Assembly: GCA_022565615.1 (NCBI GenBank)
Contig: JAIUMM010000003.1
Coordinates: forward strand, 1,012-65,011
Direction of reading: 5' to 3'
Source: Nanobdellota archaeon
Lineage (GTDB): Archaea > Nanobdellota > Nanobdellia > Woesearchaeales > UBA583
Length of the DNA: 64,000 nt
Both the position numbers and the translations under genes were made by a program. Shown here in pieces: positions 9,011 through 64,000 of this stretch. Below the pieces are notes generated by a model. It made no database searches. It had not been told where the DNA came from and was given only the letters and a program-made list of their open reading frames with translations. Within the stretch, counting starts at the first letter, position 1. Each line of letters begins with the position of its first letter.

Positions 9011-10463
<1,453 letters not shown>

Positions 10464-42962: not shown

Positions 42963-43117
42963 GTAGTAATTTATATAAATTATGTAAGCATTTTAAAAGT
43001 AACTATTCACTAATAATAAAAACACTAGAATTATATAACTGTAATAAATTTGTAAAATAAATTTTTTTGTTAAATACAGTTCGAACGAACTTTGGTTAGA
43101 CGATTTATCTTCATTTC

Positions 43118-45944
<2,827 letters not shown>

Positions 45945-46069
45945 GAAATGAATTTTTTATTAGGAAGAAAAAACTTTGTTGTTTTCTTTTATCGTCTAAC
46001 CATCATTAAAAGTCACAAGTGACTTTTTCCGTTCTTCGTAAGTAATGTTAATTACTCACTGCATTAAAG

Positions 46070-50048: not shown

Positions 50049-50699
50049 ATGGAAGTTAGTATAATTATATTTGTAAGTCTTTTCATAATACTAATCGCTC
50101 TTTTTACTCTCTCCCAATCTCCTTACTTTATCATGCTTGTTAGAAAAAAATTTGGATATTCAAAAATAGTTTATGATATCAAAGAACAAGTCAAAGGTAA
50201 AATTGATGCAGAAGGTTATTTCTCACAAAATCAAGAGATTTTAACCCCAAATGCATTTAAAAATTTAAGAATGAGTGATCAAAAAAAATATACTAAATGT
50301 TACAATATTTTAAAATTTAAAACTGAAAATTCTAATTGGGAACTTTTCTTTTATATTGTTAAAGATGGATTTTCATACAGTGAAATTTTGACCATAAGAG
50401 CATTTCCACAATATAAAATTATCACTCAAGAAGCAAGCATTGAAAGAGTTAATGGACACATCTCAATATTTTCAAGTAGTAGATTTTTATCAGAAATTTT
50501 AGAAGAAAAAAGCACAATTAGTGCATTTGAATGGATTATTCGAACAAACACCGATTCATTTTTAATTCAAAATAATAATTTAGCATTCAAAATTTTCTGT
50601 AATGATAAAACTATTCAACAAAAAAAAATTCTAGACTATATCAAAGTAATAAATCATATTAAAAATAAAGTTTTTAAAAATGATAACTTAAGATTGTAA
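50049..50699 (+). CDS. N-terminally anchored hypothetical protein (216 aa)
   Basis: One N-terminal TM helix. No family recognised. Confidence 0.4.
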   Translation: MEVSIIIFVSLFIILIALFTLSQSPYFIMLVRKKFGYSKIVYDIKEQVKGKIDAEGYFSQNQEILTPNAFKNLRMSDQKKYTKCYNILKFKTENSNWELFFYIVKDGFSYSEILTIRAFPQYKIITQEASIERVNGHISIFSSSRFLSEILEEKSTISAFEWIIRTNTDSFLIQNNNLAFKIFCNDKTIQQKKILDYIKVINHIKNKVFKNDNLRL

Positions 50700-50767
50700 A
50701 TTAATAATTTATAAATTTTAGCATCTACAAAGGAAAATATAATAAAGGGTTAAAAATTAATAATTTT

Positions 50768-51769
50768 ATGAACAAAAGACCTCTTTTAAAAATTGGACCT
50801 GATTCATATGGAATCACAATACCAAAACAATGGGTTGAAGAATTTAATTTAATTGAAAATTCACAAATATACTTAAAAAATCACAGTAATTTCATCTCAA
50901 TTCACGCCTCCGAGATTAAAGTTGATAACAAAGAAGCTATAATTAATTTTGACGATATTTCACTTAAAATATTCAATAAAATTCTAATCTCATACTATAT
51001 CAAAAACTACTCCACAATAACAATTCAAGGAGAAAATATTACTCAAAGAATTGATTCAATTAAATCTTATATCTCAAAACTCCCAAATCTTGAAATTATT
51101 GAAATTCAATCAACTAAATTAATCCTCTACAATCCAATTAACTCAAATAACTATAAATTAGAAGAATTAATTAAAAATATGAAAAAATCCATCAAATCAA
51201 TGATTGAAATTTTAATAGAAGAAATTAATACTACTCATTATACCAGCTCAAATCATAATAAAATAAAATTATTAGACTCTACTTTAAATCAACTATATTT
51301 TATTTCAATTAAAACATTAAATTATAAAATTGAAATAGAACAAGACTTTAAAATATTACAAAATTTTGGATATTATTCAAAAATTGTAAGTTTACTTGAG
51401 AAAATTGGAGATATTTTAAAAAGGATTTCAAAATACTTAATAAGTTATAAAATAGATTCTAAAGAAGATGATTTTCAACCTCTCAATCAAAGCAATACAA
51501 TTGTTTTAGAATTATTTGAAACTATAAAGAAGTATCATCAATTATTTGAAACTTTAGAACTAAATTTAAAATTATTAGAAAATTCAACACTAAATAATAT
51601 TCAAGATAAAAAAAATTCAATTTTAAAAATTCTTGAAGACTATACTCAAAATAATATTAAGCATCCAAAAGAATATCAAATTCAACTAGTAGTAGCACAA
51701 TTACTTAAAGATTTATTAGGAACATATGATGAAATTTTAATATTAATAATTGATTTAAGTTTAGAATAA
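50768..51769 (+). CDS. AbrB/SpoVT-domain protein with PhoU-like helical C-terminal region
   Basis: LLKIGPDSYGITIPKQWVEEFNLIENSQIYL is a swapped-hairpin AbrB-type motif. The long helical-repeat C-terminus is as in archaeal PhoU-like regulators. Confidence 0.55.
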   Translation: MNKRPLLKIGPDSYGITIPKQWVEEFNLIENSQIYLKNHSNFISIHASEIKVDNKEAIINFDDISLKIFNKILISYYIKNYSTITIQGENITQRIDSIKSYISKLPNLEIIEIQSTKLILYNPINSNNYKLEELIKNMKKSIKSMIEILIEEINTTHYTSSNHNKIKLLDSTLNQLYFISIKTLNYKIEIEQDFKILQNFGYYSKIVSLLEKIGDILKRISKYLISYKIDSKEDDFQPLNQSNTIVLELFETIKKYHQLFETLELNLKLLENSTLNNIQDKKNSILKILEDYTQNNIKHPKEYQIQLVVAQLLKDLLGTYDEILILIIDLSLE

Positions 51770-51883
51770 TTGATATTAAAATATAAACGCAAATTATTTG
51801 AAAAAAGTTTTATTAGACCTACATATTTAACTACTTAAAAATTATTATAAATCTCTAAAAAATTAAACATTAATAATTAATTA

Positions 51884-52321
51884 ATGAAAAATCAAATTCT
51901 GGTAACTTCTGTTGATGAAATTGTGACATTTATTAAACATAATCCACACAAAACAATTGCTGAGATTTCAAAAGTCTTTAAAATTAAAGAAGATATTGTA
52001 GATAAGTGGGTTGCAGTTCTTGAAGAATATAATGTTTGTAAAGTTGAATTTCATGGACTAGAAGGAAAAGTAGAATTTATTGAAGATACTAAAACTAAAA
52101 AAAAAGTTAAAGTTGATCAAATTAAAGATCTTTTCATCAGAGCATGTTATGCTAAAAAAATTTCAACTGATAAAATGAAAGAACTGTGGGTACTATTTTT
52201 TGATGAATACGAAATTGAAATTAAAAAAGAGTTTGAAAAAGAATGTGAAGAAAAGAAATTTGATAAGAAAAAAATTCCTCTAGCTTGGGAGAGATTTAAA
52301 CAAGTAAATAAAACATTATAA
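51884..52321 (+). CDS. small winged-helix-like protein with Lys/Glu-rich tail; first gene of the type IV filament operon
   Basis: VDEIVTFIKHNPHKTIAEISKVFKIKEDIVDKWVAVLEEYNVCKVEF. There are 9 nt to the next gene. Confidence 0.4.
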   Translation: MKNQILVTSVDEIVTFIKHNPHKTIAEISKVFKIKEDIVDKWVAVLEEYNVCKVEFHGLEGKVEFIEDTKTKKKVKVDQIKDLFIRACYAKKISTDKMKELWVLFFDEYEIEIKKEFEKECEEKKFDKKKIPLAWERFKQVNKTL

Positions 52322-52330
52322 GAGATAAAA

Positions 52331-53584
52331 ATGGCAATTGATTTTGAAGAATTTTTAAATAAAGCACTAGCTAGTAACTCTGGAGTTAGTGATGATATTT
52401 TTGAGGAAGAACTTGATGAAACTGAAGAAAAAGAGGAAGAAATAATCAATTCTATTTCAATTGAACCAATTTTAGAACAAATTAAAAATCTTAAAGAAAA
52501 AGCGTTAGACACCCCTGAGAAGTTTAAAGAAATTTATTCTAAATTTGAAGAATTTGAGAAGAATTATCCTTATTTTTTTATAGATATACAATCTAATCTC
52601 TATGATAATCAATCAATTTTAAAAACTAAATATTTACAAGATACATTAACTAAAGAAAATGAAAAAGTTGAAAAAATCAATATATTTTTTGAAAATCAAT
52701 TTAAAGAAGTTGAAGAATTAATAAAACAAAACAAATTTCAAAATGCACACAATAAAATAATCTCCCTAAATTATGAAATATATCAAATCCCACAATCTTA
52801 TACAAAATTAAAATTTAATTTACTTAAAAAAAATTTATTTCAAATAAATAATTATTATAATCAACAGCAAAAAATAAAAACTCAATTATTAAAAGAATAT
52901 ATCAATTCAATGAAATATATTCTATCTCAAAAAAATACTATTTTTTCAAGTATTAATAGAACCGAGTTAGATGAATTAATTAAAAGTATTCAAATTTTAT
53001 TTTTAAAAAGAAGAATAGAATTTGATTTATATTTAGGCGAATATTTCCAAAAATTTATCTCATTTAATAATAAATTAATTGAACATAGACTAGAATTACA
53101 AACAAGATGTGAAAATGATTTTATAAAATATTTTACAATGTTAGAATCTAAATTTCAAAACTACTTAGAACAAAAACAAGTGTATGAAGCATTAGTTGTA
53201 TTAGAAGTAACTCATATGTTATTAAAAAAAGAAACTTGTTATAATCAAGATTTAAAAATAACATATTTTTTAAAATTAATAGAATATAAAAAAGAAATTA
53301 ATAAATTAAGTTATGCTACTAAAAAAGGATTTAGTGAAGAAGAATTAACTCTTTGTTATGCATACTCTAAGTTAAATTTGATTAATCTCTTAAATCACTC
53401 AATAATTAGATTTAATAAAAATGAAATTAAAGAAACTATTAATGAAATTTATAATCTTGAAAATTTAAAAAATAATCATAAAAAACTAATATTAAATAGA
53501 ATTATTACTAAATTCAAACCTTCAAATAATAGTAAAGAAAAATCTAATACTAGAATAACAACTAATGTAAATACTAAAAAATGA
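52331..53584 (+). CDS. 417-aa helical protein of unknown function; overlaps the ATPase gene by 4 nt
   Basis: Acidic N-terminus followed by a long predicted alpha-helical region. The ATGA overlap with 53581 implies translational coupling. Confidence 0.4.
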   Translation: MAIDFEEFLNKALASNSGVSDDIFEEELDETEEKEEEIINSISIEPILEQIKNLKEKALDTPEKFKEIYSKFEEFEKNYPYFFIDIQSNLYDNQSILKTKYLQDTLTKENEKVEKINIFFENQFKEVEELIKQNKFQNAHNKIISLNYEIYQIPQSYTKLKFNLLKKNLFQINNYYNQQQKIKTQLLKEYINSMKYILSQKNTIFSSINRTELDELIKSIQILFLKRRIEFDLYLGEYFQKFISFNNKLIEHRLELQTRCENDFIKYFTMLESKFQNYLEQKQVYEALVVLEVTHMLLKKETCYNQDLKITYFLKLIEYKKEINKLSYATKKGFSEEELTLCYAYSKLNLINLLNHSIIRFNKNEIKETINEIYNLENLKNNHKKLILNRIITKFKPSNNSKEKSNTRITTNVNTKK

Positions 53585-55089
53585 AAATTTTAAAACAATA
53601 TGAGGTTTTTTTTGAAGGAGTTGGAATTCCAATTACAATTTATGAAGAACCTAAACAATTTGTCCCAATTTATGAAGTTGGAATTTTAGAACTTGGAAAA
53701 TATACTCAATTAATTGTTAAAAAAATTAAAGAAGACTTACTTAGAGAAGGAGTTTTAGATTCATTTTCAAGAAAAACTAATGTTGGATATGAAGAAATTA
53801 AACAAGCATATATGGACAAAATTAAAGAATTATTGAACTATTATTTTCCAAATATTTCTTTTGATGAAAAATCAAAAATTTTAACTGTCATTCTTCAAAC
53901 TAGTTTTGATTTAGGGTACGTAGATATTTTAGTTAGTGATTCACAAATAGAGGAAGTTACTATTAATGGTGCAAAAAATGAAATCATGATTTATCACAGA
54001 ACATTTGGATGGTGTAAAACTAATTTAAACTTTAAAGATGATGTTGAAATTAGAAATATTGCAACTAGAGTTGCAATGGAGAACAAGAAATTTTTTTCAA
54101 ATTTAAATCCTCTTCTAGATGCACACCTCTTAGGAGGACATCGTGTAAATGCAACACTTTCTCCAATTTCAACTGATGGTTCAACTATGACTATTAGACG
54201 ATTCTCCGATACTCCTTGGACTGTATGCGATTTAATTAGGGCTAAAACTTCTACACCTTTAGGACTTGCAATTATTTGGCTTGCAATTGAAAATGAATTT
54301 TCATTAATAGTAGTTGGAGGGACAGGATCAGGTAAAACTTCATTTTTAAATGCAATTTCAGGATTTATTCCTGCTGATCAAAGAATTATCTCAGTTGAAG
54401 ATACAAGAGAAGTAAGACTTCCCGAATATGCTCATTGGGTTCCAATGGAGTCAAGATCAGCGAATCAAGAAGGAAAAGGAGAAGTTTCAATGCTTCATTT
54501 AATTGTGAATAGTCTTCGTATGAGACCTGATAGAATTTTAATTGGAGAAATTAGACGTAAAGAAGAAGCTGAAATTTTATTTGAAGCAATGAGAACTGGA
54601 CACAGTGTATATGGTACATTTCACGCAAATACTGCTGAGGAGATGGTTCTGCGTATGTCTTCATCACCAATTGAGATTCCAAAAATTACTCTAAACTCAC
54701 TTGGTTTAATAGTAGTTCAGCACAGAGATAGAAAAAATGGAAGAAGAATTACTCTACAAATTGCAGAAATGACTCCTGAAGGAGATAGTAGGGTAATTTT
54801 TCAATATAACCCTAAAAAAGATGATTTAGAACTTAAAAGAAAACCTAAATATTTTATGGACAAACTTGATGAGTTTCATGGAATTGATTCTGAAGAATTT
54901 TTAGAAGAATTAAAACACAGAGCTTGGTTTTTAAACGCTTTAAGTGAAGCAGGTGCAAAAGATATCACTCAAATTGGAAATTATATTAACCAATATAATA
55001 AAGATAAAGATAAAATTTTACTTAAACTCTCAAAACTTGTTGAAAAAAAGAAAAAACATAAAAAAGCATTAAACAATAATAATAAATAG
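53581..55089 (+). CDS. type II/IV secretion-family ATPase (PilB/ArlI/TadA-like)
   Basis: VTINGAKNEIMIYH, Walker A GGTGSGKTSFLNA, Asp box RIISVEDTRE, Walker B PDRILIGEIR, His box GHSVYGTFHA; 502 aa. Confidence 0.85.
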   Translation: MKILKQYEVFFEGVGIPITIYEEPKQFVPIYEVGILELGKYTQLIVKKIKEDLLREGVLDSFSRKTNVGYEEIKQAYMDKIKELLNYYFPNISFDEKSKILTVILQTSFDLGYVDILVSDSQIEEVTINGAKNEIMIYHRTFGWCKTNLNFKDDVEIRNIATRVAMENKKFFSNLNPLLDAHLLGGHRVNATLSPISTDGSTMTIRRFSDTPWTVCDLIRAKTSTPLGLAIIWLAIENEFSLIVVGGTGSGKTSFLNAISGFIPADQRIISVEDTREVRLPEYAHWVPMESRSANQEGKGEVSMLHLIVNSLRMRPDRILIGEIRRKEEAEILFEAMRTGHSVYGTFHANTAEEMVLRMSSSPIEIPKITLNSLGLIVVQHRDRKNGRRITLQIAEMTPEGDSRVIFQYNPKKDDLELKRKPKYFMDKLDEFHGIDSEEFLEELKHRAWFLNALSEAGAKDITQIGNYINQYNKDKDKILLKLSKLVEKKKKHKKALNNNNK

Positions 55090-55092
55090 AAT

Positions 55093-55908
55093 ATGGTTTT
55101 AAAAGAAATTATTAGAAAAATTGCCTCAAAATATCCTAATTTAAACCATAAATTAAAACTTGCAGGTTTAAATCAAAGTCCATTTCAATATATTTTTCAA
55201 ACTATTGCATTAACAGGAATGATTTGTGCAGGAATTTTTATATTTATATTTATTTTGTTCTCATCAAGTCCAAATTTTTTAACACTACTTATTGGAAGTA
55301 TTTTAGCAATTCCTCTAATTTATTTATTTTTATTTTCAATTGCAGATGTTAAAGCAAAACAACTTGGAAGAGAACTTGATAGAGATTTACTCTTTGTATC
55401 AGAATATTTACTTGTAACACTTGAATCAGGAATTCCTCTTCCTAATGCACTTGAAGAAATGAGTAAAATTCAAAGACCTGGTGGAATCTATTTTGAGAGA
55501 ATTTTAAGAGAGTTTAAAATGGGTGAAGATTTAGAACAAACGCTTGATGATGCAATTGATTACTGTCCTTCTGAAGATTTTAGAAACTTAATTAAAAAAT
55601 TAAGAGATAGTTTAAGTATTGGTGTTCAATTGGATAAAACATTAGTTGATTTTGTAGAAGAGAGTTCTGATAAAAAATTAATTGAAATTCAAGGATACTC
55701 TAAAAAATTAAATCCTCTTATTATGATGTATTTAGTTCTTGGAATTGTAGTACCATCACTAGGTGTTACTTTTTTTATTTTATTTGCAGCAATTAGTGGG
55801 ATGAGTGAAGGTATGCTTGCATTTATTCTTTCAATAATATTTTTATTTATGTTTTTATTTCAATACATTGCATACTCTTCCCTTAAATTTAGTAAATCAA
55901 CTCTTTAA
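55093..55908 (+). CDS. type II secretion system F-domain platform protein (TadB-like half)
   Basis: Single T2SSF-type domain (LESGIPLPNALEEMSK...) flanked by TM helices; 271 aa. Confidence 0.7.
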   Translation: MVLKEIIRKIASKYPNLNHKLKLAGLNQSPFQYIFQTIALTGMICAGIFIFIFILFSSSPNFLTLLIGSILAIPLIYLFLFSIADVKAKQLGRELDRDLLFVSEYLLVTLESGIPLPNALEEMSKIQRPGGIYFERILREFKMGEDLEQTLDDAIDYCPSEDFRNLIKKLRDSLSIGVQLDKTLVDFVEESSDKKLIEIQGYSKKLNPLIMMYLVLGIVVPSLGVTFFILFAAISGMSEGMLAFILSIIFLFMFLFQYIAYSSLKFSKSTL

Positions 55909-55922
55909 AAAAAAATATAAAA

Positions 55923-56969
55923 ATGGCAAATAATATTATTTCATTAAAAAATTTAGGAAAACTCTTAATGCCTAATAAAATTCTCTCACTACAATATTCT
56001 GATAAAATAAAAGTAGCATATGAAAGAGTAAATGGTGAAAAGATTCGATACGAAATTATGTTCTATTTTTATATTTCTTCATTTTTTTTAAGTCTAATAA
56101 TTTCTTTTTATTTGCTTGACTATGTCTATTTTTTTCTAGAAAATTTCATGAACTCAACATTATATCAAGTAGGAATATTTACACTTTACTTTTCAATTAT
56201 TCAAATTTCAGTATATTATGGTATTTTAATTGGTTATTTAATTAAATTTGATTCCAAAATTACTCAATATGAAATTAATGTTGAAAAAGATTTACCTGAC
56301 TTTTTAGATAACTTGATTTCAAATTTAAAAGGTGGATTAATTCTTGAAAAAGCTCTAATGAGATCAGTTAGAGATGACCAGAAAGAATTACTTCACGAAG
56401 TTACATTAATTAATGAAAAAATATTATCAGGAACATCAGTTGAAAAAGCATTAAGTGAAATGAGAGAGAGGTTTAATTCACAAATAATTTCAAGAACACT
56501 TTTTTTAATTATTGAAGGATTAAAGGGAGGAGGAAATTTGTCAGCACCACTTGAGAGAATTTCAAATAACTTGAAAAAACTCTATCTTTTAGATAGTGAA
56601 GTTAAATCAAGTGTTGGAGGATTTACAGTTGTAATTAAAGCAATTGGTGGATTTTTAGCCCCAGCTCTTTTTGCACTAGCAATTACTCTATTGGTATTTA
56701 TTGGTGATTTATTAGTCCTATTATCTAGTAGTGGAACTAATGTCATTGCAATGTCTGAATTACCTGAGAATTTTGTATTTTATTTAGTTACATTTTCATA
56801 TTCAATGATTGTTCTAGTTTCTATTTTTTCAAATTTAATTACATCCCAACTTAAAAATGAAGAAGGATATAAAGCTCTTAAAAGTATCCCCATTACAATT
56901 ATCTTATCTTCCTTTCTATACTACTATCTCTCTGATATTTTAATTGCATATTTCTCAAATATTATTTAA
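55923..56969 (+). CDS. type II secretion system F-domain platform protein (TadC-like half)
   Basis: Single T2SSF-type domain (LKGGLILEKALMRSV..., GLKGGGNLSAPLERIS) plus TM helices; 348 aa. Confidence 0.7.
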   Translation: MANNIISLKNLGKLLMPNKILSLQYSDKIKVAYERVNGEKIRYEIMFYFYISSFFLSLIISFYLLDYVYFFLENFMNSTLYQVGIFTLYFSIIQISVYYGILIGYLIKFDSKITQYEINVEKDLPDFLDNLISNLKGGLILEKALMRSVRDDQKELLHEVTLINEKILSGTSVEKALSEMRERFNSQIISRTLFLIIEGLKGGGNLSAPLERISNNLKKLYLLDSEVKSSVGGFTVVIKAIGGFLAPALFALAITLLVFIGDLLVLLSSSGTNVIAMSELPENFVFYLVTFSYSMIVLVSIFSNLITSQLKNEEGYKALKSIPITIILSSFLYYYLSDILIAYFSNII

Positions 56970-57282: not shown

Positions 57283-57406
57283 TCATTAAAAATATTTAAT
57301 TTTGTAACTAATTACAATATCTATTCTACAATATTTTTATTATTATTTGTGTTATTATAAAAAAGTTAAACTAAATATTATTAATATAATAATATATAAT
57401 TTAAAT

Positions 57407-58693
57407 ATGAAAATAAATCATATACAAGCAATTGAAATTTTAGATTCAAGAGGAAATCCTACTGTAAAAGTTGAAATGTTACTCGAAGATGGATCTTTTG
57501 GAGATTTTAGTGTTCCTTCTGGTGCTTCAACAGGAATTCATGAAGCTCATGAATTAAGAGATGAGGACCCTTTAAGATATCATAAAAAAGGAGTATTAAA
57601 AGTAATTGAAAATATTAATTCTATCAAAAATGATTTATATAAGCGTTCTTTTACTCAAACATCATTAGATGAATTTTTAATTACTAAAGATGGAACTACT
57701 AATAAGAACAATTTAGGTGCTAATGCAATTCTAGGAATTAGTATAGCATTTGCAAAAGCTTGTTCTAAACATTACAATTTGCCATTATATGAATATTTAC
57801 ATAGACTCTATGAAAATAAAGGAATGCGTTCAAAAACTACTCTTAGTTCCCACACACCACTTTTATTCTCTAATATTATTAATGGAGGGGAGCATGCAGA
57901 TAATGACTTAATGGTTCAAGAATGTATGATTATATGTAATTCTAGAAATATTCAAGAAAGTGTAAGAAAAACTTCTGAAGTATATCAATCATTAAAGAGT
58001 GAAATTAAAAAAAAATATGGTGCTGGAAGTACTGGTCTTGGAGATGAAGGAGGATTTGCACCTAATGTGAAAAATGTTGAAGATTCATTCAATTTAATTA
58101 CAAAAGTATTAAAACATTTAAATTATACTTCTAATTTTGTGTTTGCAATTGATGCAGCTGCTTCTGAGTTTTATAATGAAAAAGAGAAAACATATGAAAT
58201 TGAAAAAGGTAAAAAAGTAAAATCTAAAGAACTAAATGAATATTATAAAGAATTAATTTCAAAATTTCCTTTAGTCTCTATTGAAGATTCTTTCTCAGAA
58301 GATGATTTTTCAGGTTTTGCTAGTTTTCAAAAAATGATATCTAAATTATCTAAAGAAGAAAACCCATTCTCAAATATTTTAAGTGTTGGAGATGATTTAT
58401 TAGTTACAAATCCTCAAAGAATCAAATTAGGAATTGAAAAACAATTGTGTAATGCACTACTTTTAAAAATTAATCAAATTGGAACATTAACTGAGAGTTT
58501 TAAAGCAGCAAAACTTGCTCAAGAACAAGGTTGGAGTGTTATTGTATCACACAGATCTGGTGAGACTATTGACTCATTTATCTCAGATTTAGCAGTTGCA
58601 ATTGGAGGGGAAATTAAACTTGGAGCTCCTGCAAGAGGAGAGAGAGTTGCTAAATATAATAGACTCTTAGAAATTTGTAGAAATTTTAACTAA
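57407..58693 (+). CDS. eno: enolase
   Basis: IEILDSRGNPTVKVE, SGASTGIHEAHELRD, DDLLVTNP, SHRSGETID. The ORF-track start at 57347 adds 20 implausible residues; the ATG at 57407 gives the canonical N-terminus. Confidence 0.95.
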   Translation: MKINHIQAIEILDSRGNPTVKVEMLLEDGSFGDFSVPSGASTGIHEAHELRDEDPLRYHKKGVLKVIENINSIKNDLYKRSFTQTSLDEFLITKDGTTNKNNLGANAILGISIAFAKACSKHYNLPLYEYLHRLYENKGMRSKTTLSSHTPLLFSNIINGGEHADNDLMVQECMIICNSRNIQESVRKTSEVYQSLKSEIKKKYGAGSTGLGDEGGFAPNVKNVEDSFNLITKVLKHLNYTSNFVFAIDAAASEFYNEKEKTYEIEKGKKVKSKELNEYYKELISKFPLVSIEDSFSEDDFSGFASFQKMISKLSKEENPFSNILSVGDDLLVTNPQRIKLGIEKQLCNALLLKINQIGTLTESFKAAKLAQEQGWSVIVSHRSGETIDSFISDLAVAIGGEIKLGAPARGERVAKYNRLLEICRNFN

Positions 58694-58753: not shown

Positions 58754-58825
58754 GCGTCTATAGCTCAGGGGTAGAGCGGCTGCCTTGTAAGCAGCAGGCC
58801 GTGGGTTCAAATCCCACTAGGCGCT
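58754..58825 (+). tRNA. tRNA-Thr (anticodon TGT)
   Basis: Acceptor GCGTCTA/TAGGCGC, D arm AGCTCAGGGGTAGAGC, anticodon loop CTTGTAA, T arm GTGGG-TTCAAAT-CCCAC. Confidence 0.9.
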
Positions 58826-59593: not shown

Positions 59594-60514
59594 ATGAAGT
59601 CCTCAATTTTGAAGTATTTGTTACTTCTAATAGCTCTTTTGTCTTCTATCTCTCTTGGATTTTCAAGTACAGTATTTGAATTGTTTAGTGATGTTTCTAT
59701 AATATTTCAAAATATGGGTCCTGAAGTTGCATATTTTATTTCATTTGTTCTTCTAACAGTTTTATTTTTTGTAATATTTAAACAAGGTACTGTGAGAATG
59801 CTTCCAAATAATTCAAGGGGAGCTAAAGCAGTTGCAGTTATTCTAGGTTTATTTGCAGCTATTGGGTTAGTTACACATGAAAGATTAGCAAATACAGATA
59901 ATGTACTCATAGCAATTGGACAGGGAGTTTTATTTCCAGTATTATTACTGGCACTATTTGCAGGTTCATGGGCAGTTTTAAGAGGTATTAATGGAGCAAA
60001 AGTAAGTGGATTTGGTAAAATTTTAATGTATTTAGGATTTTTAGTACTATTTACATTTGCATTTATTCAATTAATGATTTTTGGAGGTGCAACATTATTT
60101 AGTGGAATAATTCAAACAGACTTTGTTCAAGGAATTATTAGTTTCTTTACTTACTTATTAATTGTGCTTACAATCATCTTTGTAGTAGCTTTAATATTTA
60201 TCTTCTTCACAGTAAAAGAATTTTTAGAATTATTTGATAGTTCTGATGATGAATCAGTTCTTGCAAGAGCAAGAAAAAAGAAAAAAGAGAAAAAAATTCA
60301 AGATGCAAATACAATTGAGCAACTCAATCAACTTAAAAAAGCATTTCAAAAAATGAAAAATGCTTATGATGACAAAGCAGTTCATTTAAGAGACATTGGA
60401 AATATGGGAGATATTAGAACAACTCTTGATAGAGCAGAAGAAGTTCCACCTCAAGATACTGATGGAAGAGGATTATATAAAGCTCCTCAAAACTTTGGAG
60501 GTCCTTTTAAATAA
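59594..60514 (+). CDS. polytopic membrane protein with charged cytoplasmic tail; first gene of an uncharacterised three-gene operon
   Basis: Signal-like N-terminus and about 6 TM helices. The tail is DSSDDESVLARARKKKKEKK... and ends in GGPFK. Confidence 0.5.
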   Translation: MKSSILKYLLLLIALLSSISLGFSSTVFELFSDVSIIFQNMGPEVAYFISFVLLTVLFFVIFKQGTVRMLPNNSRGAKAVAVILGLFAAIGLVTHERLANTDNVLIAIGQGVLFPVLLLALFAGSWAVLRGINGAKVSGFGKILMYLGFLVLFTFAFIQLMIFGGATLFSGIIQTDFVQGIISFFTYLLIVLTIIFVVALIFIFFTVKEFLELFDSSDDESVLARARKKKKEKKIQDANTIEQLNQLKKAFQKMKNAYDDKAVHLRDIGNMGDIRTTLDRAEEVPPQDTDGRGLYKAPQNFGGPFK

Positions 60515-60523
60515 ATTAGAAAA

Positions 60524-62191
60524 ATGGTATCATCAGAATTTGCAATATTTCAAAATTATAGACAAAAAGCAGCTGCTCTTAGAAGTGCAGCAAAAGATGC
60601 ACTAGATATTTTTACAAATTTAGGAAAAGGATTTGACTCAACTAATAAATATTTACTTCAAAGAGCAGGAATCTCAGAGAAATTACAAGATAGATTAATT
60701 AGAGGAGATAAACAAATTAAGCCTCTTCTTCAAGGATTAATTCAAGAACTTGATAGAGAAATTAAAGAATTAGATTCTATGCTTGGACATATTCAAATTT
60801 TTGGAGCTGATGCATTTCATAATTTTCAACGAAGTGCAATTTCACATCAAAAAAAACAAGCTGATATATTAAATGAATTATATGAATTAGGAATTGGATA
60901 CTTCCATGCACTTGAAGATCAAATTCATGCAAGATACTTAAGTGTGGAACAAGCCCATAACAGATTTAGAGAAAAACTCTTTGAAATTTTAAGAGCATTA
61001 GTTGAAGATAAAATGCCTAAAAGTGCAATTGTTGATACTTGGATTGATTGTTTTGAATTTTTAGTATTGTATTTACGTGATGATTTAGAAATGGCTCTTC
61101 CAAGACATACATTTATTGAACTTGTTGAACAAGAAACATACTCTCCTGCAAGAGTTGTATTACAACGATATTTTACAGTTGGACAAGGAGAACATTATAT
61201 TAAACAAGTTGAAGAACAAGGATTAACTAGAAGAGCAAGAGATAGTAACTCTCAAAAAGTATCTTATTTATCATTAAAAGAAGAACAACAGAAGAAGATT
61301 GACAAAATTGTAATGGCGTCCCTAATTAATTTACTTGAAGGAGTTGAATTTGAGGACTCAAATGAAGGAAGATATGTCTGGGATCAAGATACTGATAAAC
61401 CTGAAGACTCTAGAAGAGGTATAAAACAACGAATTGAAGATAAATTCAAAGAAAAAGAAAAATCTCCAATTACTGATGAAGTTACAGCTGTAATAGAACA
61501 ACTTCTTATTGAATTTAGAACTAAAGTAATTGAACTTAAAGCTAAAAAATTCTTCAAATATGAAGAAGCAAACAAAAATCTAGGGTACGATAAATTCATT
61601 ATATTTGTAACTGATAATGGGCAACCTGTCTATGTTGAAAATTTAAGAGATGATAAATGGAGGGAAAAAAATGCAACAACTGTTCTTGGAGTAAGAGAAT
61701 TCTTAAAAAGAGTTCTTGATTCAGGAACTAAAGAACCTCAAAAAGATGTATATGTTAAATATTTATTAGAACTTGAAGAGAATAAACAACTACTTGCATC
61801 TTCTCAAGAAGGAGGAAGTGGAGGCGAAGATGAAGAAGATTGGTTTAGTGGAGTAGAAGCATTTTCAAATTATAACGAACTTCATAGTGCAATTCAAGAA
61901 ATGTTAACATTATGTAATGGACTTAAAGATGATTCCCTATATTCAGAAGATAGGGTAAATAGTGACTCTACTAATGCTGTTGAATTAAAAATTAATGGAT
62001 TAAAAGAAGGTTCAAAAAGAATAGCTAAAAGTTTATCCTCCAAAGATTACTTTGGAACTATAAATAAACAAGAAATGATTGCTCAAATTAAAAATATTCT
62101 TAATTCTTTAAATTCAATTAATATTCATTCCTCAAAAAGTATTATCTTAAATACTGTTAATCAAATTGAAGGAGTACTACAACAGTTTTAG
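60524..62191 (+). CDS. 555-aa predominantly helical protein, unknown family
   Basis: Starts 9 nt after the upstream stop. Balanced (not Asn/Ile-swamped) composition suggests a constrained protein. No motif recognised. Confidence 0.5.
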   Translation: MVSSEFAIFQNYRQKAAALRSAAKDALDIFTNLGKGFDSTNKYLLQRAGISEKLQDRLIRGDKQIKPLLQGLIQELDREIKELDSMLGHIQIFGADAFHNFQRSAISHQKKQADILNELYELGIGYFHALEDQIHARYLSVEQAHNRFREKLFEILRALVEDKMPKSAIVDTWIDCFEFLVLYLRDDLEMALPRHTFIELVEQETYSPARVVLQRYFTVGQGEHYIKQVEEQGLTRRARDSNSQKVSYLSLKEEQQKKIDKIVMASLINLLEGVEFEDSNEGRYVWDQDTDKPEDSRRGIKQRIEDKFKEKEKSPITDEVTAVIEQLLIEFRTKVIELKAKKFFKYEEANKNLGYDKFIIFVTDNGQPVYVENLRDDKWREKNATTVLGVREFLKRVLDSGTKEPQKDVYVKYLLELEENKQLLASSQEGGSGGEDEEDWFSGVEAFSNYNELHSAIQEMLTLCNGLKDDSLYSEDRVNSDSTNAVELKINGLKEGSKRIAKSLSSKDYFGTINKQEMIAQIKNILNSLNSINIHSSKSIILNTVNQIEGVLQQF

Positions 62192-62203
62192 TAGTAATTA
62201 AAA

Positions 62204-64000
62204 ATGAATTCTAACTATAATGCAACAACTGGAATTTTAAGTAAACCAACTCAAATAGGGAACTTGAAATTAAAACAAACTTACTTCATTGAACCTAATC
62301 ATCCTACTCTTTTTGTTGATGATGCTCTAATGGGCATTTGGATAAATTTAGATTCTACTCAATTTAGTAACAAGCAATCAATTGGATTTCCAATTAGTAT
62401 TCAAAGAATAAATAATGGTGATAAAAAGGATTTCAAATTATTATCATTTCCTTCTTATAAAATAACTAGTGAAGGTAAATTACCAGTTCAAATTTTTTTA
62501 GACGATGTTTATGAAATTTTTAATACAGCTTTCCCACTTGGAGCTAGAGAAAATGAAGGAGAAGAAAATCAAACTGATAAAGAATTAGATTTAGAACAAA
62601 AAATTGATATTTTGCATAAAATTTTTGAATTTGATACCTCTAAAGGTAGAATTCCTAAAAATTATCTAGAGGCTAAAGATAAACTTAGTAGTTCTGTTTT
62701 AGAGAAAATGAGGTTATTTCTAAAATTTATAAAAAATCTTAGAAAAGCACCTCTTAAAGAATTATTAACAGATAAAACAAAATCTATTATATTTGGAACA
62801 CTATCAATGAAAGATGAACTAGAAAATCAAGTTGCAACAATGAATGTTCAATATAAAAAAATTGATGATAATTCCTGTCAAAGAGTATTTGATGAAGCAT
62901 TTAAAAGTCTATATTTATCAGATTCACAATTACACGATATATTTGATGCCATTGGGTTTAAATATTGGTCAAATGGTAATATCCCGCTAACAGGAGGAGC
63001 TATATTTGTAGATTATGGAGGAACTGGTAAATCTCTTTCTAAATCTGCAATTAGAAGTTTCACAAAAGGTTTAGCAAAATCAGTAAAAACAGATTGTGAA
63101 ATTAAAGAAGTAACTTCTGGAGAAATTTCTTCTTATGTCAACTCAGGACCACAAACAGTTCAAAGATGGTATTTAGGTTCAAAGATAAGTGACCATATTT
63201 CAAGTAAACAACCAAATTTAGTTGAAAAAGCAAGAATAAATCAATTTCCATCATTTTTAATTGTAGATGAAGCACAAGATTTAATCAAATCAAGTGATTT
63301 AAGAAGAATTGGAGAGTCTGATCCAGGAACTATTGAACCTTTTAAGAGATTTATTCAAGATGTTAATAAAGGAGGTGTTACAGGGTTTGTAATTACAATT
63401 CTAATTGCAAATATGAGACCTGAGCAAATAGATAATCCTCTCTCTCAAGGTGGAGAAAGATTAAAAACAATTTGGTTTGGACATCCAAAAACAGTGGAAG
63501 CATGGAGTGCTGTTGCACTATTTCAATTTGAGGATAAAAAATTAAAATTTAATTTAGAATATAATCAACTTCCTCTTAAAAATATTGGAAAAATTCTTCT
63601 AAAACAGCAAGAATTTTTAAAAAATAGTTTCCAAATTAGAGAATTTGAAGAAGAAAAAGGAGGAGTTTCTCAAAGGATTTTTGGAGATATTGTAGCTGAG
63701 TTTAAATCAAGAAATTCTAATGAAAATATTACTAGCTTTAGCATAAACCAATTTAGACATACAGAAGATATAGATAAAATATTTGATTTTATATCATTTC
63801 TTGAATTTTTAATAGAAAAAGCAATATCAACTGCTAGAAGAGGAGGATTTAGTATTAATGAACAACAGTTGAGGAATTTACTTAGAAATGAAATTAATCT
63901 TGAAACTAACTCTACATCATCTTCAAATGATAATCACTCACATAGTTTTGAAAATGTCAATCCACAGCTTACTCAATTCTATAATAAAATATTAAAAACT
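62204..64000 (+). CDS. divergent classic-clade AAA+ ATPase with ~260-aa unknown N-terminal domain (partial; continues past the window end)
   Basis: My translation from the ATG at 62204 is open for all 599 codons. Walker A-like DYGGTGKSL (about 63011-63037), Walker B FLIVDEAQDL (about 63254-63283), sensor-1/Arg-finger-like ILIANMRPEQIDNPLSQGGERL (compare ATNRP..lD.AllRPGRfd). Absent from the ORF track because there is no stop in the window. Confidence 0.65.
   Translation, partial: MNSNYNATTGILSKPTQIGNLKLKQTYFIEPNHPTLFVDDALMGIWINLDSTQFSNKQSIGFPISIQRINNGDKKDFKLLSFPSYKITSEGKLPVQIFLDDVYEIFNTAFPLGARENEGEENQTDKELDLEQKIDILHKIFEFDTSKGRIPKNYLEAKDKLSSSVLEKMRLFLKFIKNLRKAPLKELLTDKTKSIIFGTLSMKDELENQVATMNVQYKKIDDNSCQRVFDEAFKSLYLSDSQLHDIFDAIGFKYWSNGNIPLTGGAIFVDYGGTGKSLSKSAIRSFTKGLAKSVKTDCEIKEVTSGEISSYVNSGPQTVQRWYLGSKISDHISSKQPNLVEKARINQFPSFLIVDEAQDLIKSSDLRRIGESDPGTIEPFKRFIQDVNKGGVTGFVITILIANMRPEQIDNPLSQGGERLKTIWFGHPKTVEAWSAVALFQFEDKKLKFNLEYNQLPLKNIGKILLKQQEFLKNSFQIREFEEEKGGVSQRIFGDIVAEFKSRNSNENITSFSINQFRHTEDIDKIFDFISFLEFLIEKAISTARRGGFSINEQQLRNLLRNEINLETNSTSSSNDNHSHSFENVNPQLTQFYNKILKT

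Follow-up and report, generated by a model that had tools for sequence, protein, structure and literature searches.

The stretch of DNA analyzed here, called the window throughout, comprises 64,000 nucleotides (nt) of a Nanobdellota archaeon (contig JAIUMM010000003.1 of assembly GCA_022565615.1, positions 1,012 to 65,011 of the forward strand). At its end lie three co-directional genes, which encode a polytopic membrane protein (gene 1), a protein of 555 amino acids (aa) that is named the middle protein below (gene 2), and an AAA ATPase (gene 3). The coordinates of the genes, their domains, and their motifs are collected in Table 1. The gaps between the genes are only 9 nt (genes 1 and 2) and 12 nt (genes 2 and 3), and the third gene is open through the window end, exactly as had been read in an earlier note, which a model had made from the sequence alone. 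Gene 3 is absent from the list of open reading frames (ORFs) because it runs past the window end; its complete product has 672 aa (P0001), with a stop codon near position 64222 and the final 73 aa outside of the window. At the base composition of the window a stop is expected with a frequency of 0.081 per codon (about one per 12 codons), and the chance of an open run of 555 codons is about 1e-20. This low value, together with the presence of homologs in the same order elsewhere and with ratios of nonsynonymous to synonymous substitution rates (dN/dS) of 0.11-0.31 in the alignable parts, excludes a chance origin of the reading frames. The three genes form one conserved operon or unit. Upstream of them a type IV pilus-like cluster, the gene for enolase, the gene for tRNA-Thr, and a YecM homolog are found, and therefore the trio is a separate unit. 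Its most unusual feature is a recombining hypervariable cassette, which extends from the 3' part of gene 2 through the greater part of gene 3 and which is invisible from one sequence.

Table 1. Positions of the three genes and of their domains and motifs in the window.
Feature	Residues	Position	Strand	Basis or remark
Gene 1, polytopic membrane protein	306 aa	59594-60514	+	ORF, hydropathy, homologs
Gene 1, transmembrane region	1-215	59594-60238	+	hydropathy
Gene 1, charged tail	216-306	60239-60511	+	hydropathy, alignment
Gene 2, middle protein	555 aa	60524-62191	+	ORF
Gene 2, conserved N-module	1-320	60524-61483	+	AlphaFold2 model, alignments, dN/dS
Gene 2, alpha/beta region and acidic Gly/Ser linker	321-424 and 425-447	61484-61864	+	breakpoints at both ends
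Gene 2, C-terminal helical bundle	448-555	61865-62191	+	AlphaFold2 model, variable domain
Gene 3, AAA ATPase	599 codons	62204->64000	+	open to the window end
Gene 3, N-terminal region	1-255	62204-62968	+	translation, alignment
Gene 3, AAA core		62969-63493	+	motif coordinates, homology
Walker A, YGGTGKS	271-277	63014-63034	+	
Pore-loop-1, SSYVNSG		63128-63148	+	
Walker B, FLIVDEA	351-357	63254-63274	+	
Sensor-1 Asn403 and SRH-like stretch IANM...SQGGERL (IANMRPEQIDNPLSQGGERL)	401-420	63404-63463	+	
Gene 3, helical lid/linker	431-599	63494-64000	+	cut by the window end

The trio was found at 12 distinct loci, all of which stem from Woesearchaeota/Nanoarchaeia-type metagenomic assemblies (the window and the loci L001, L002, L003, L006, L009/L010, L013, L014, L015, L016, L018, and L019). 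Synteny in other genomes had been set beforehand in the earlier note as a test on which its idea of a three-gene system could fail. The order membrane protein, middle protein, ATPase is the same in 12 of 12 loci, genes are missing only at contig ends, and a gene 1 homolog is present directly upstream of the middle gene at every locus whose contig extends there. Flanking sequence is available for ten of the other loci, and in nine of these the trio lies between YecM (or enolase) and a TatD-family gene; the trio of L001 has different neighbors. At L002 (GCA_041241995.1), 3' of the most divergent window-type ATPase, the region L002:3826-5104 encodes a protein of 231 aa and a truncated protein of 194 aa, with no TatD gene, so that the YecM-TatD position is apparently not the only one at which the trio occurs.

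A word-indexed search of 5.8 billion proteins retrieved six proteins related to the middle protein and, for the ATPase, only two (58% and 34% identity), and a word-indexed profile search yielded no further family members. An exhaustive hmmsearch with the profile of the middle protein against 1.84 billion cluster representatives returned eight proteins, all with E<=4e-75, and nothing between E=4e-75 and E=0.001. Because of this empty gap the family of the middle protein is sharply bounded, with no detectable remote relatives. A GTDB scan of 185,579 species representatives revealed the middle protein in two genomes, both loci being already in the set. No hits were obtained with the ATPase alignment in the GTDB species representatives, with the alignments of the middle protein and the ATPase in the JGI metagenomes and IMG/VR, or with the middle protein and the window-type ATPase in the GenBank phages using tblastn. 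All members of the family thus come from about a dozen metagenomic loci of uncultivated archaea, and any function is a prediction from sequences and models.

Comparison of the loci uncovered that different parts of the trio have different histories. Between the window and L006 the flanking genes are 83-94% identical (T2SSE ATPase 94%, enolase 87%), compared to 65% for the membrane protein, 74% for aa 1-319 of the middle protein, and only 22-25% for the trio ATPase, and the last ~240 aa of the middle protein were undetectable by BLAST. Between the window and L013 the membrane proteins are 86% and the ATPases 34% identical (70% over the last 40 aa), and the identity of the middle proteins is 67-97% per 40-aa block from aa 1 to 440 (84% overall) and about 23% from aa 441 to 555. 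For the window and L001 the respective values are 29% for the membrane protein, 34% for the N-terminal half and 42% for the C-terminal part of the middle protein, and 55% for the ATPase, with 67-82% per 40-aa block in the AAA core. No single tree with gene-specific rates yields both the L013 and the L001 patterns, and therefore the gene histories are discordant. The last ~90 aa of the ATPase follow the genome tree again (76% identity to L013, 49% to L006, 33% to L001).

The C-terminal part of the middle protein varies together with the ATPase. The C-terminal bundle of the window protein is similar to those of L001 (37-42%), L014 (34%), and L002 (collinear, E=0.28 only), and all three loci have window-like ATPases. 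No similarity of this bundle was detectable to L006, L003, or L009, and the residual similarity to L013 is located upstream of the breakpoint. L006, L009, and L019 form another group, with 43-45% identity of the middle C-termini and 45-52% of the ATPases, while the N-terminal half of L019 has 33-38% identity to anything else. The N-terminal halves of L014 and L015 are 92% identical, in contrast to their unrelated C-termini. The breakpoints in the middle protein are at about aa 320, 424, and 450: the identity per 40-aa block falls at about aa 280-320 versus L006 and at about aa 440-460 versus L013, and the BLAST high-scoring segment pair with L003 ends at aa 424. These positions match domain borders and a low-confidence linker that were predicted by the AlphaFold2 model. 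Four close strains (window, L013, L003, and L006, with 74-87% identity of the middle N-terminal halves) have four different cassettes, whose ATPases share at most 34% identity. According to these alignments, the membrane protein, the N-terminal half of the middle protein, and the C-terminal tail of the ATPase form a constant module that follows the genome tree, and the C-terminal domain or domains of the middle protein together with the N-domain and core of the ATPase form a variable cassette that has been exchanged between lineages. A diversity-generating retroelement was considered as the source of the variability and was rejected, as upon inspection the differences were whole-domain replacements with indels and not substitutions at A sites.

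The constant parts evolve faster than the surrounding genes. The membrane protein has dN/dS values of 0.11-0.31 and the N-terminal half of the middle protein has values of 0.18-0.23, compared to 0.06-0.13 for the flanking genes, and the dS of the constant parts is equal to that of the flanks. The trio genes are thus real and constrained, but 2-3 times freer in evolution than their neighbors. A comparison of L018 with L006 gave identities of 58-85% for the flanks, 48% for the membrane protein, and 30% for the middle protein; TatD is 95% conserved between L003 and L006. As the trio outpaces its flanks and as close strains have many deep alleles of the cassette, a diversifying pressure on the interface between motor and adaptor is suggested, that is, diversifying or balancing selection exerted by an antagonist, which could be a virus, a host, or a competitor.

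Scans of the three window proteins with Pfam, NCBIfam, PADLOC, and PHROGs gave nothing significant; in PADLOC-DB 2.0 the sole match was TRIP13 for the ATPase (E=0.008, 13.7 bits), and the membrane protein and the middle protein had none. The operon is described nowhere in the full-text literature that was searched, and the proposal of the earlier note that the trio is an undescribed system agrees with the result that no described system matches it. Likewise, the N-domain of the ATPase and the middle protein, which the note had been unable to place, match nothing known in Pfam, NCBIfam, PADLOC, PHROGs, and the PDB, nor, for the middle protein, with Foldseek. The motor belongs to a known superfamily, and its two partners are new protein families, because they are devoid of sequence or fold relatives.

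Hydropathy analysis of gene 1 indicated an N-terminal hydrophobic segment followed by about 5-7 transmembrane (TM) spans up to aa 215, in line with the about six TM helices and the long charged cytoplasmic tail that had been proposed before. The tail has a length of 91 aa, contains 19 K/R and 15 D/E residues, and has the sequence KKKKEKK at its start. It should be cytoplasmic according to the positive-inside rule, because the K/R cluster directly follows the last TM span. An alignment of ten homologs revealed that the best-conserved motif of the whole protein sits in the tail (DDES..ARKKKKEKK..EQLNQLKKAFxKM[KR]xAYDDK), and it is kept even in L001, where the overall identity of gene 1 is 29%. 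The tail may therefore be a docking helix for a conserved partner. No family match of gene 1 was found in Pfam, NCBIfam, PADLOC, or PHROGs.

The middle protein is soluble, mostly helical, and composed of several domains, and by hydropathy neither it nor the ATPase has a TM segment. Its AlphaFold2 model, which was based on the alignment of 12 sequences, has a mean predicted local distance difference test (pLDDT) score of 71.3 and a predicted template modeling (pTM) score of 0.44. In the model the N-module consists of helices at aa 4-32, 52-88, 95-161, and 166-190, the last three of which are very long, and the C-terminal bundle consists of helices at aa 436-472, 482-505, 515-530, and 535-554; the linker (aa 425-447, ASSQEGGSGGEDEEDW...) was modeled with a pLDDT below 50. 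Close relatives share 74-87% of the N-module residues with the window, and the most distant ones 31-37%. The C-terminal bundle might be a docking domain for the ATPase. The Pfam scan of the 12 middle proteins revealed no family common to the members, and the profile of the middle protein had no match among PDB sequences. A Foldseek search against the PDB and BFVD yielded no match at E<=0.001 (best E=0.6 and 0.09, TM-score <=0.26), with the full-length model of pTM 0.44 as the query, so that a search at the level of domains could differ; the top matches were vinculin, catenin, and tape-measure proteins, i.e., generic long-helix noise. The middle protein therefore appears to be an orphan in sequence and in predicted fold. 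An ESCRT-III/PspA identity of its long helical hairpin was supported neither by Pfam, nor by Foldseek, nor by hhalign: Snf7 or PspA_IM30 matched none of the 12 middle proteins, ESCRT-III entries were absent from the top 50 Foldseek matches in the PDB, and hhalign gave probabilities of 0.4% versus PspA and 0.1% versus CHMP1B (reference sequences entered by hand).

Gene 3 seems to encode a very diverged single-domain ATPase of the classic AAA clade with intact catalytic residues, which would have a weak affinity to Vps4/CdvC and NSF and stand outside every named subfamily. It has one AAA module only, with one Walker A/B pair, and the Walker A motif, the Walker B motif, and the stretch resembling the second region of homology (SRH) were found where the earlier note had placed them. 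P0001 itself has no match among PDB sequences and no match to Pfam PF00004. It aligns with the L006 ortholog at E=2e-26 over aa 218-672, and PF00004 is passed by the orthologs of L003, L006, L009, L016, L018, and L019 with 31.6-45.4 bits (cutoff 21.2). The classification as a diverged classic AAA protein, which had been proposed from the motifs, is thus borne out transitively by the homology to an ortholog that passes PF00004. The ATPases of L013 and L014, with 16.9 and 16.8 bits, are under the 21.2-bit cutoff. The best PDB sequence matches of the L006 ortholog are Sec18/NSF D1, Afg2, an archaeal Vps4-like AAA protein, and paraplegin (E 5e-4 to 2e-2), and the best NCBIfam profile for the ATPases of L006, L016, and L018 is CdvC, with 20.2-28.6 bits versus a cutoff of 650 bits; P0001 and the L013 ATPase did not match CdvC. 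The length of the ATPase varies from 559 to 932 aa among the alleles.

The catalytic residues K276, D355, E356, N403, and R419 are invariant in six aligned alleles, and they are kept in all 11 alleles wherever the contig reaches, that of L014 ending just before the R419 column. The canonical Walker A sequence GPPGTGKT is present in the ATPases of L016 and L018. The strong divergence that had been described in the earlier note turned out to be allelic and not a trait of the family, because other alleles at the same locus have GPPGTGKT and pass PF00004. In the window type (SQGGERL) the first Arg of the R-x-G-R pair of the SRH is replaced by Gln; L006, L009, and L019 have this Arg (TRDG-RM), and L003 and L018 have RR. 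Most alleles have an aromatic residue in pore-loop-1 (SSYVNSG in the window, QYINAG, KFAGAY, SYVGAY, and SYYGAL in others), and pore-loop-1 is deleted in the L013 ATPase. For the N-terminal region (aa 1-255), which has no Pfam, NCBIfam, or PDB-sequence match, a low-confidence model points to a beta-rich domain (about aa 1-110) followed by a helical linker. The N-termini of 11 alleles could be aligned and have a beta-type core motif in common (...Lx[IL]W[IL]N[LI]...K.S...[IV]x[RK][IV]), and therefore the alleles are diverged versions of one gene.

Two similarities at the other end of the ATPase were followed and discarded. The sequence LYHPDQY in the tail is reminiscent of a J-domain, but only the window and L013 have HPD (FPD in L006, HPN in L001, YRQ in L009), hhalign versus the J-domain of Escherichia coli DnaJ gave a probability of 3.6% over 22 columns, and Pfam DnaJ did not match. 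The L003 allele (L003:3093-5891, Woesearchaeota metagenome-assembled genome GCA_047602745.1) has 932 aa and carries a C-terminal extension, for which a similarity to GT4 glycosyltransferases was under the cutoff (24 bits, E=4e-5; TuaC 16 bits) and too weak to be used; if true, it would tie one allele to envelope glycan synthesis. A PDB sequence search with the C-terminal extensions of the L003 and L018 ATPases retrieved nothing.

The window has a guanine-cytosine (GC) content of ~27%, and it contains an archaeal 16S rRNA gene (9012-10463) and a 23S rRNA gene (43107-45955), which are unlinked, on the same strand, and ~33 kb apart. The unlinked archaeal rRNA genes, together with the names Candidatus Woesearchaeota or Nanoarchaeia that the relatives of the trio proteins carry, identify the genome as DPANN-type. 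The two rRNA genes are the two GC peaks (0.38-0.42), the rest of the window having 20-30% GC, and a tRNA-Ala gene adjoins the 23S rRNA gene. The pilus/archaellum-like cluster (50049-56969) contains genes for a T2SSE ATPase (53581-55089) and two T2SSF proteins (55093-55908 and 55923-56969). Of the four unannotated ORFs upstream of T2SSE, two are only 57-65% identical to L006, and these low-identity ORFs look like a second fast-evolving patch, possibly encoding pilins or accessory proteins. The enolase ORF (57347-58693) was listed from a TTG codon with an N-terminal extension of 19 aa; Pfam Enolase_N and the L006 ortholog indicate that the true start is the ATG at about 57404 (MKINHIQ...). The interval between enolase and YecM holds the tRNA-Thr gene in the window (58754-58825). 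In L009 the same interval (L009:2107-8077) encodes a phage-type integrase of 527 aa, a UvrD/AAA_30 helicase of 895 aa, and small ORFs, which suggests that an element has integrated at a tRNA-associated hotspot, a few kb from the trio on its upstream side. The record CAZULG010000003.1 (L012, identical to L009) is titled "uncultured Methanosarcinales archaeon," and the NCBI protein name is "Candidatus Nanoarchaeia archaeon." The Methanosarcinales label is probably wrong, as the pilus cluster, enolase, the trio, and the 67-84% identity to the L006 flanks fit DPANN.

In the reading that we favor, with some reserve, the trio is predicted to be a clade-specific, membrane-tethered AAA machine for the remodeling of proteins, which is equipped with its own adaptor. 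The tail of the membrane protein would anchor the middle protein, through its N-module, on the cytoplasmic side of the membrane, and the C-terminal bundle, on its flexible linker, would dock onto the N-domain of the ATPase. Such docking would explain why the bundle and the N-domain of the ATPase are replaced together. The constant tail of the ATPase might contact the constant module, and a presumed hexamer of the ATPase would thread or unfold a substrate at the membrane. Either the middle protein itself might serve as the substrate, comparable to the action of Vps4 on the tails of ESCRT-III, or the middle protein might present a client, as with SNAP and NSF or the adaptors of p97. The pressure of an antagonist, i.e., a virus, a host, or a competitor, may diversify the interface of motor and adaptor.

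Several observations weigh against such a machine. The putative role of the middle protein as a scaffold or adaptor finds no support in a relative or a structural analog, as none was detectable; the physical interaction among the three proteins is a prediction. The ATPase model, which was built from an alignment of three sequences, reached a pLDDT of only 36.5. Because of the Gln in the window type and the deletion of the pore-loop aromatic residue in L013, not every allele need be an active translocase. The joint replacement of the middle C-terminus and the ATPase could merely reflect their adjacency on one recombination tract. In addition, an IS3-family insertion sequence (IS) splits the ATPase gene of L001 near codon 89 (L001:8497-8808 / L001:10001-11785), so that at least one lineage either can do without the system or is losing it. 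The IS (L001:8764-10000 of a 1.09-Mb ENA contig) encodes an rve transposase and HTH_Tnp_1, both on the minus strand, and is bordered by imperfect terminal inverted repeats (...GGACACTTAGTTAAGCTT / AAGCTTAACTAAGTGTCC...).

The most far-reaching version would be a conflict system, in which a membrane-anchored AAA unfoldase and its tethered adaptor are kept as ancient, interchangeable specificity alleles for immunity or for the recognition of hosts or competitors by a symbiont; this is possible, though we regard it with considerable doubt. If true, the trio would encode an "allelic unfoldase," in which cassette exchange determines the range of targets and which would be without counterpart among the described machines for defense, secretion, or remodeling. 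A narrower antiviral role, i.e., abortive infection with the variable ATPase and the middle C-domain as sensors of viral proteins and the membrane protein as a membrane-damaging effector, is doubtful. Four different cassettes in four close strains (window, L013, L003, and L006) would be expected for such a sensor, as would a trio that evolves faster than its flanks and that is non-essential, as deduced from the IS-inactivated copy of L001, and the combination of a constant effector with a variable sensor is common in defense systems. However, no PADLOC model was matched at a meaningful E-value, faint profile matches to IteA and TRIP13 being at noise level, and a recognizable effector domain, e.g., a nuclease or a protease, is absent. 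Furthermore, at nine of the ten loci with a flank the site is fixed among housekeeping genes (YecM/enolase and TatD) and outside of a variable defense island, the constant module is inherited vertically, and the trio is seemingly present clade-wide and not sporadically. An arrangement like that of polymorphic toxins or self/non-self modules, with the middle C-domain for effector function or recognition and the ATPase as the cognate chaperone or immunity protein, would also account for a constant N-terminus that gives way sharply to a variable C-terminus and for a downstream gene that varies along with it, and formally it is the layout of the CdiA-CT/CdiI and Rhs loci. It is nevertheless improbable, as none of the 12 middle proteins has a signal peptide, a TM segment, or a secretion or toxin domain, the breakpoints (about aa 320, 424, and 450) are not at one conserved motif, the tail of the ATPase reverts to the constant module, and the immunity partner would be a catalytically intact AAA ATPase of 560-930 aa. 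We know of no precedent for an AAA ATPase of that size as an immunity partner.

The trio could, without any conflict, be an ordinary lineage-specific housekeeping AAA protein, a diverged paralog of CdvC, Cdc48, or FtsH, with two fast-evolving partners that were shaped by drift and occasional recombination. DPANN genomes are fast-evolving and rich in orphan genes (PMC6393860), and such an origin would be in agreement with the fixed position in a housekeeping neighborhood and with the purifying selection on the alignable parts. It is unlikely all the same, because drift on one tree is incompatible with one pair of loci that has 86% identity of the membrane protein and 34% of the ATPase and another pair that has 29% and 55%, and because the flanks are 83-94% identical where the ATPase is at about 22-25%. 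Moreover, the catalytic residues are kept in all alleles at 20-35% identity, which argues for long-term upkeep of distinct functional alleles. That the trio is the remnant or the cargo of a mobile element or a provirus is very improbable. An integrase-helicase element does lie close to the L009 trio, a few kb upstream between enolase and YecM, and two of the ATPases (L006 and L016) match the viral AAA family phrog_9172 (E=1e-7 to 7e-10), but the PHROG matches are confined to the generic AAA core, and the middle protein and the window-type ATPase have no relatives in IMG/VR contigs or GenBank phages. Apart from the L009 integrase, a few kb upstream, and the L001 IS, no mobile-element gene adjoins the trio, its GC content is the same as that of its surroundings, and dS does not differ between the constant parts and the flanks.

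As a rule, few proteins of a genome are better conserved than its AAA motors. Strains with 83-94% identical neighboring genes that carry intact AAA alleles of 20-35% identity would represent an unusual regime for this class of motors. If the favored membrane-tethered remodeling machine is correct, cognate and non-cognate pairs of motor and adaptor already exist at the 12 loci, and therefore the locus is a natural experiment for mapping the interface. If, in addition, a conflict with viruses or hosts were true, the locus would give first access to a mechanism of immunity or interaction in uncultured Woesearchaeota-type episymbionts, about whose cell biology, to our knowledge, almost nothing is known.

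The closest described relative in logic is the Cdv system, in which CdvC (Vps4), the ESCRT-III protein CdvB, and CdvA likewise combine a single-ring classic AAA protein with a helical partner, encoded beside it, and a membrane-targeting component. Of the NCBIfam profiles, that of CdvC scores highest for three alleles, and the top PDB sequence matches include an archaeal Vps4-like AAA protein. The MIM of ESCRT-III binds the MIT domain of Vps4, and the apparent match between the C-terminal element of the middle protein and the N-domain of the ATPase is comparable to this contact; co-evolution of MIM and MIT is reportedly discussed in one study. However, the trio ATPases reach only 20-29 bits versus the CdvC cutoff of 650 bits, they have no Pfam match to MIT in aa 1-255 and a predicted beta-rich N-domain, and the middle protein of 555 aa is not ESCRT-III/PspA-like according to Pfam, Foldseek, and hhalign. 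In addition, the membrane component is polytopic, in contrast to the peripheral CdvA, and the cassette is hypervariable, in contrast to the conserved Cdv genes. A second relative in logic is NSF/Sec18 with SNAP and SNAREs, as the N-domain of NSF binds a helical adaptor that presents membrane-anchored helical substrates, and Sec18 D1 is the best PDB sequence match of the L006 ortholog (E=5e-4). This match is a generic similarity at the AAA level, and NSF has two AAA rings and an N-domain of defined fold, whereas no SNAP or SNARE homology is detectable in the trio. Cdc48/p97/VAT are also classic AAA unfoldases, with a beta-rich N-domain that recruits adaptors and with a function in membrane extraction, but the trio ATPase has one AAA module and no Pfam match to CDC48_N, and the CDC48 profile of NCBIfam scores 14-21 bits on the trio ATPases versus a cutoff of 803. 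The earlier note had seen in the trio the logic of Vps4 with ESCRT-III or of Cdc48 with adaptors. This survives as an analogy only: the CdvC profile is the best one, but neither an MIT nor a CDC48_N domain is found, and the middle protein is not of the ESCRT-III/PspA type.

The architecture of the variation has parallels in a different kind of loci. Variable-module loci with a switch inside a gene are known from the essC variants of the ess/T7SS (type VII secretion system) locus of Staphylococcus aureus, from CdiA-CT/CdiI, and from Rhs toxin loci. Like the trio, they have a conserved 5' module, an abrupt switch within a gene to deep alleles that reach into the next gene, and several alleles among close relatives. 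The proteins, however, are unrelated, and the trio has no variable effector or immunity genes downstream, where TatD follows. Its variable unit is an AAA motor together with an adaptor domain, and, in contrast to those loci, similarity between its alleles resumes at the C-terminal tail of the ATPase.

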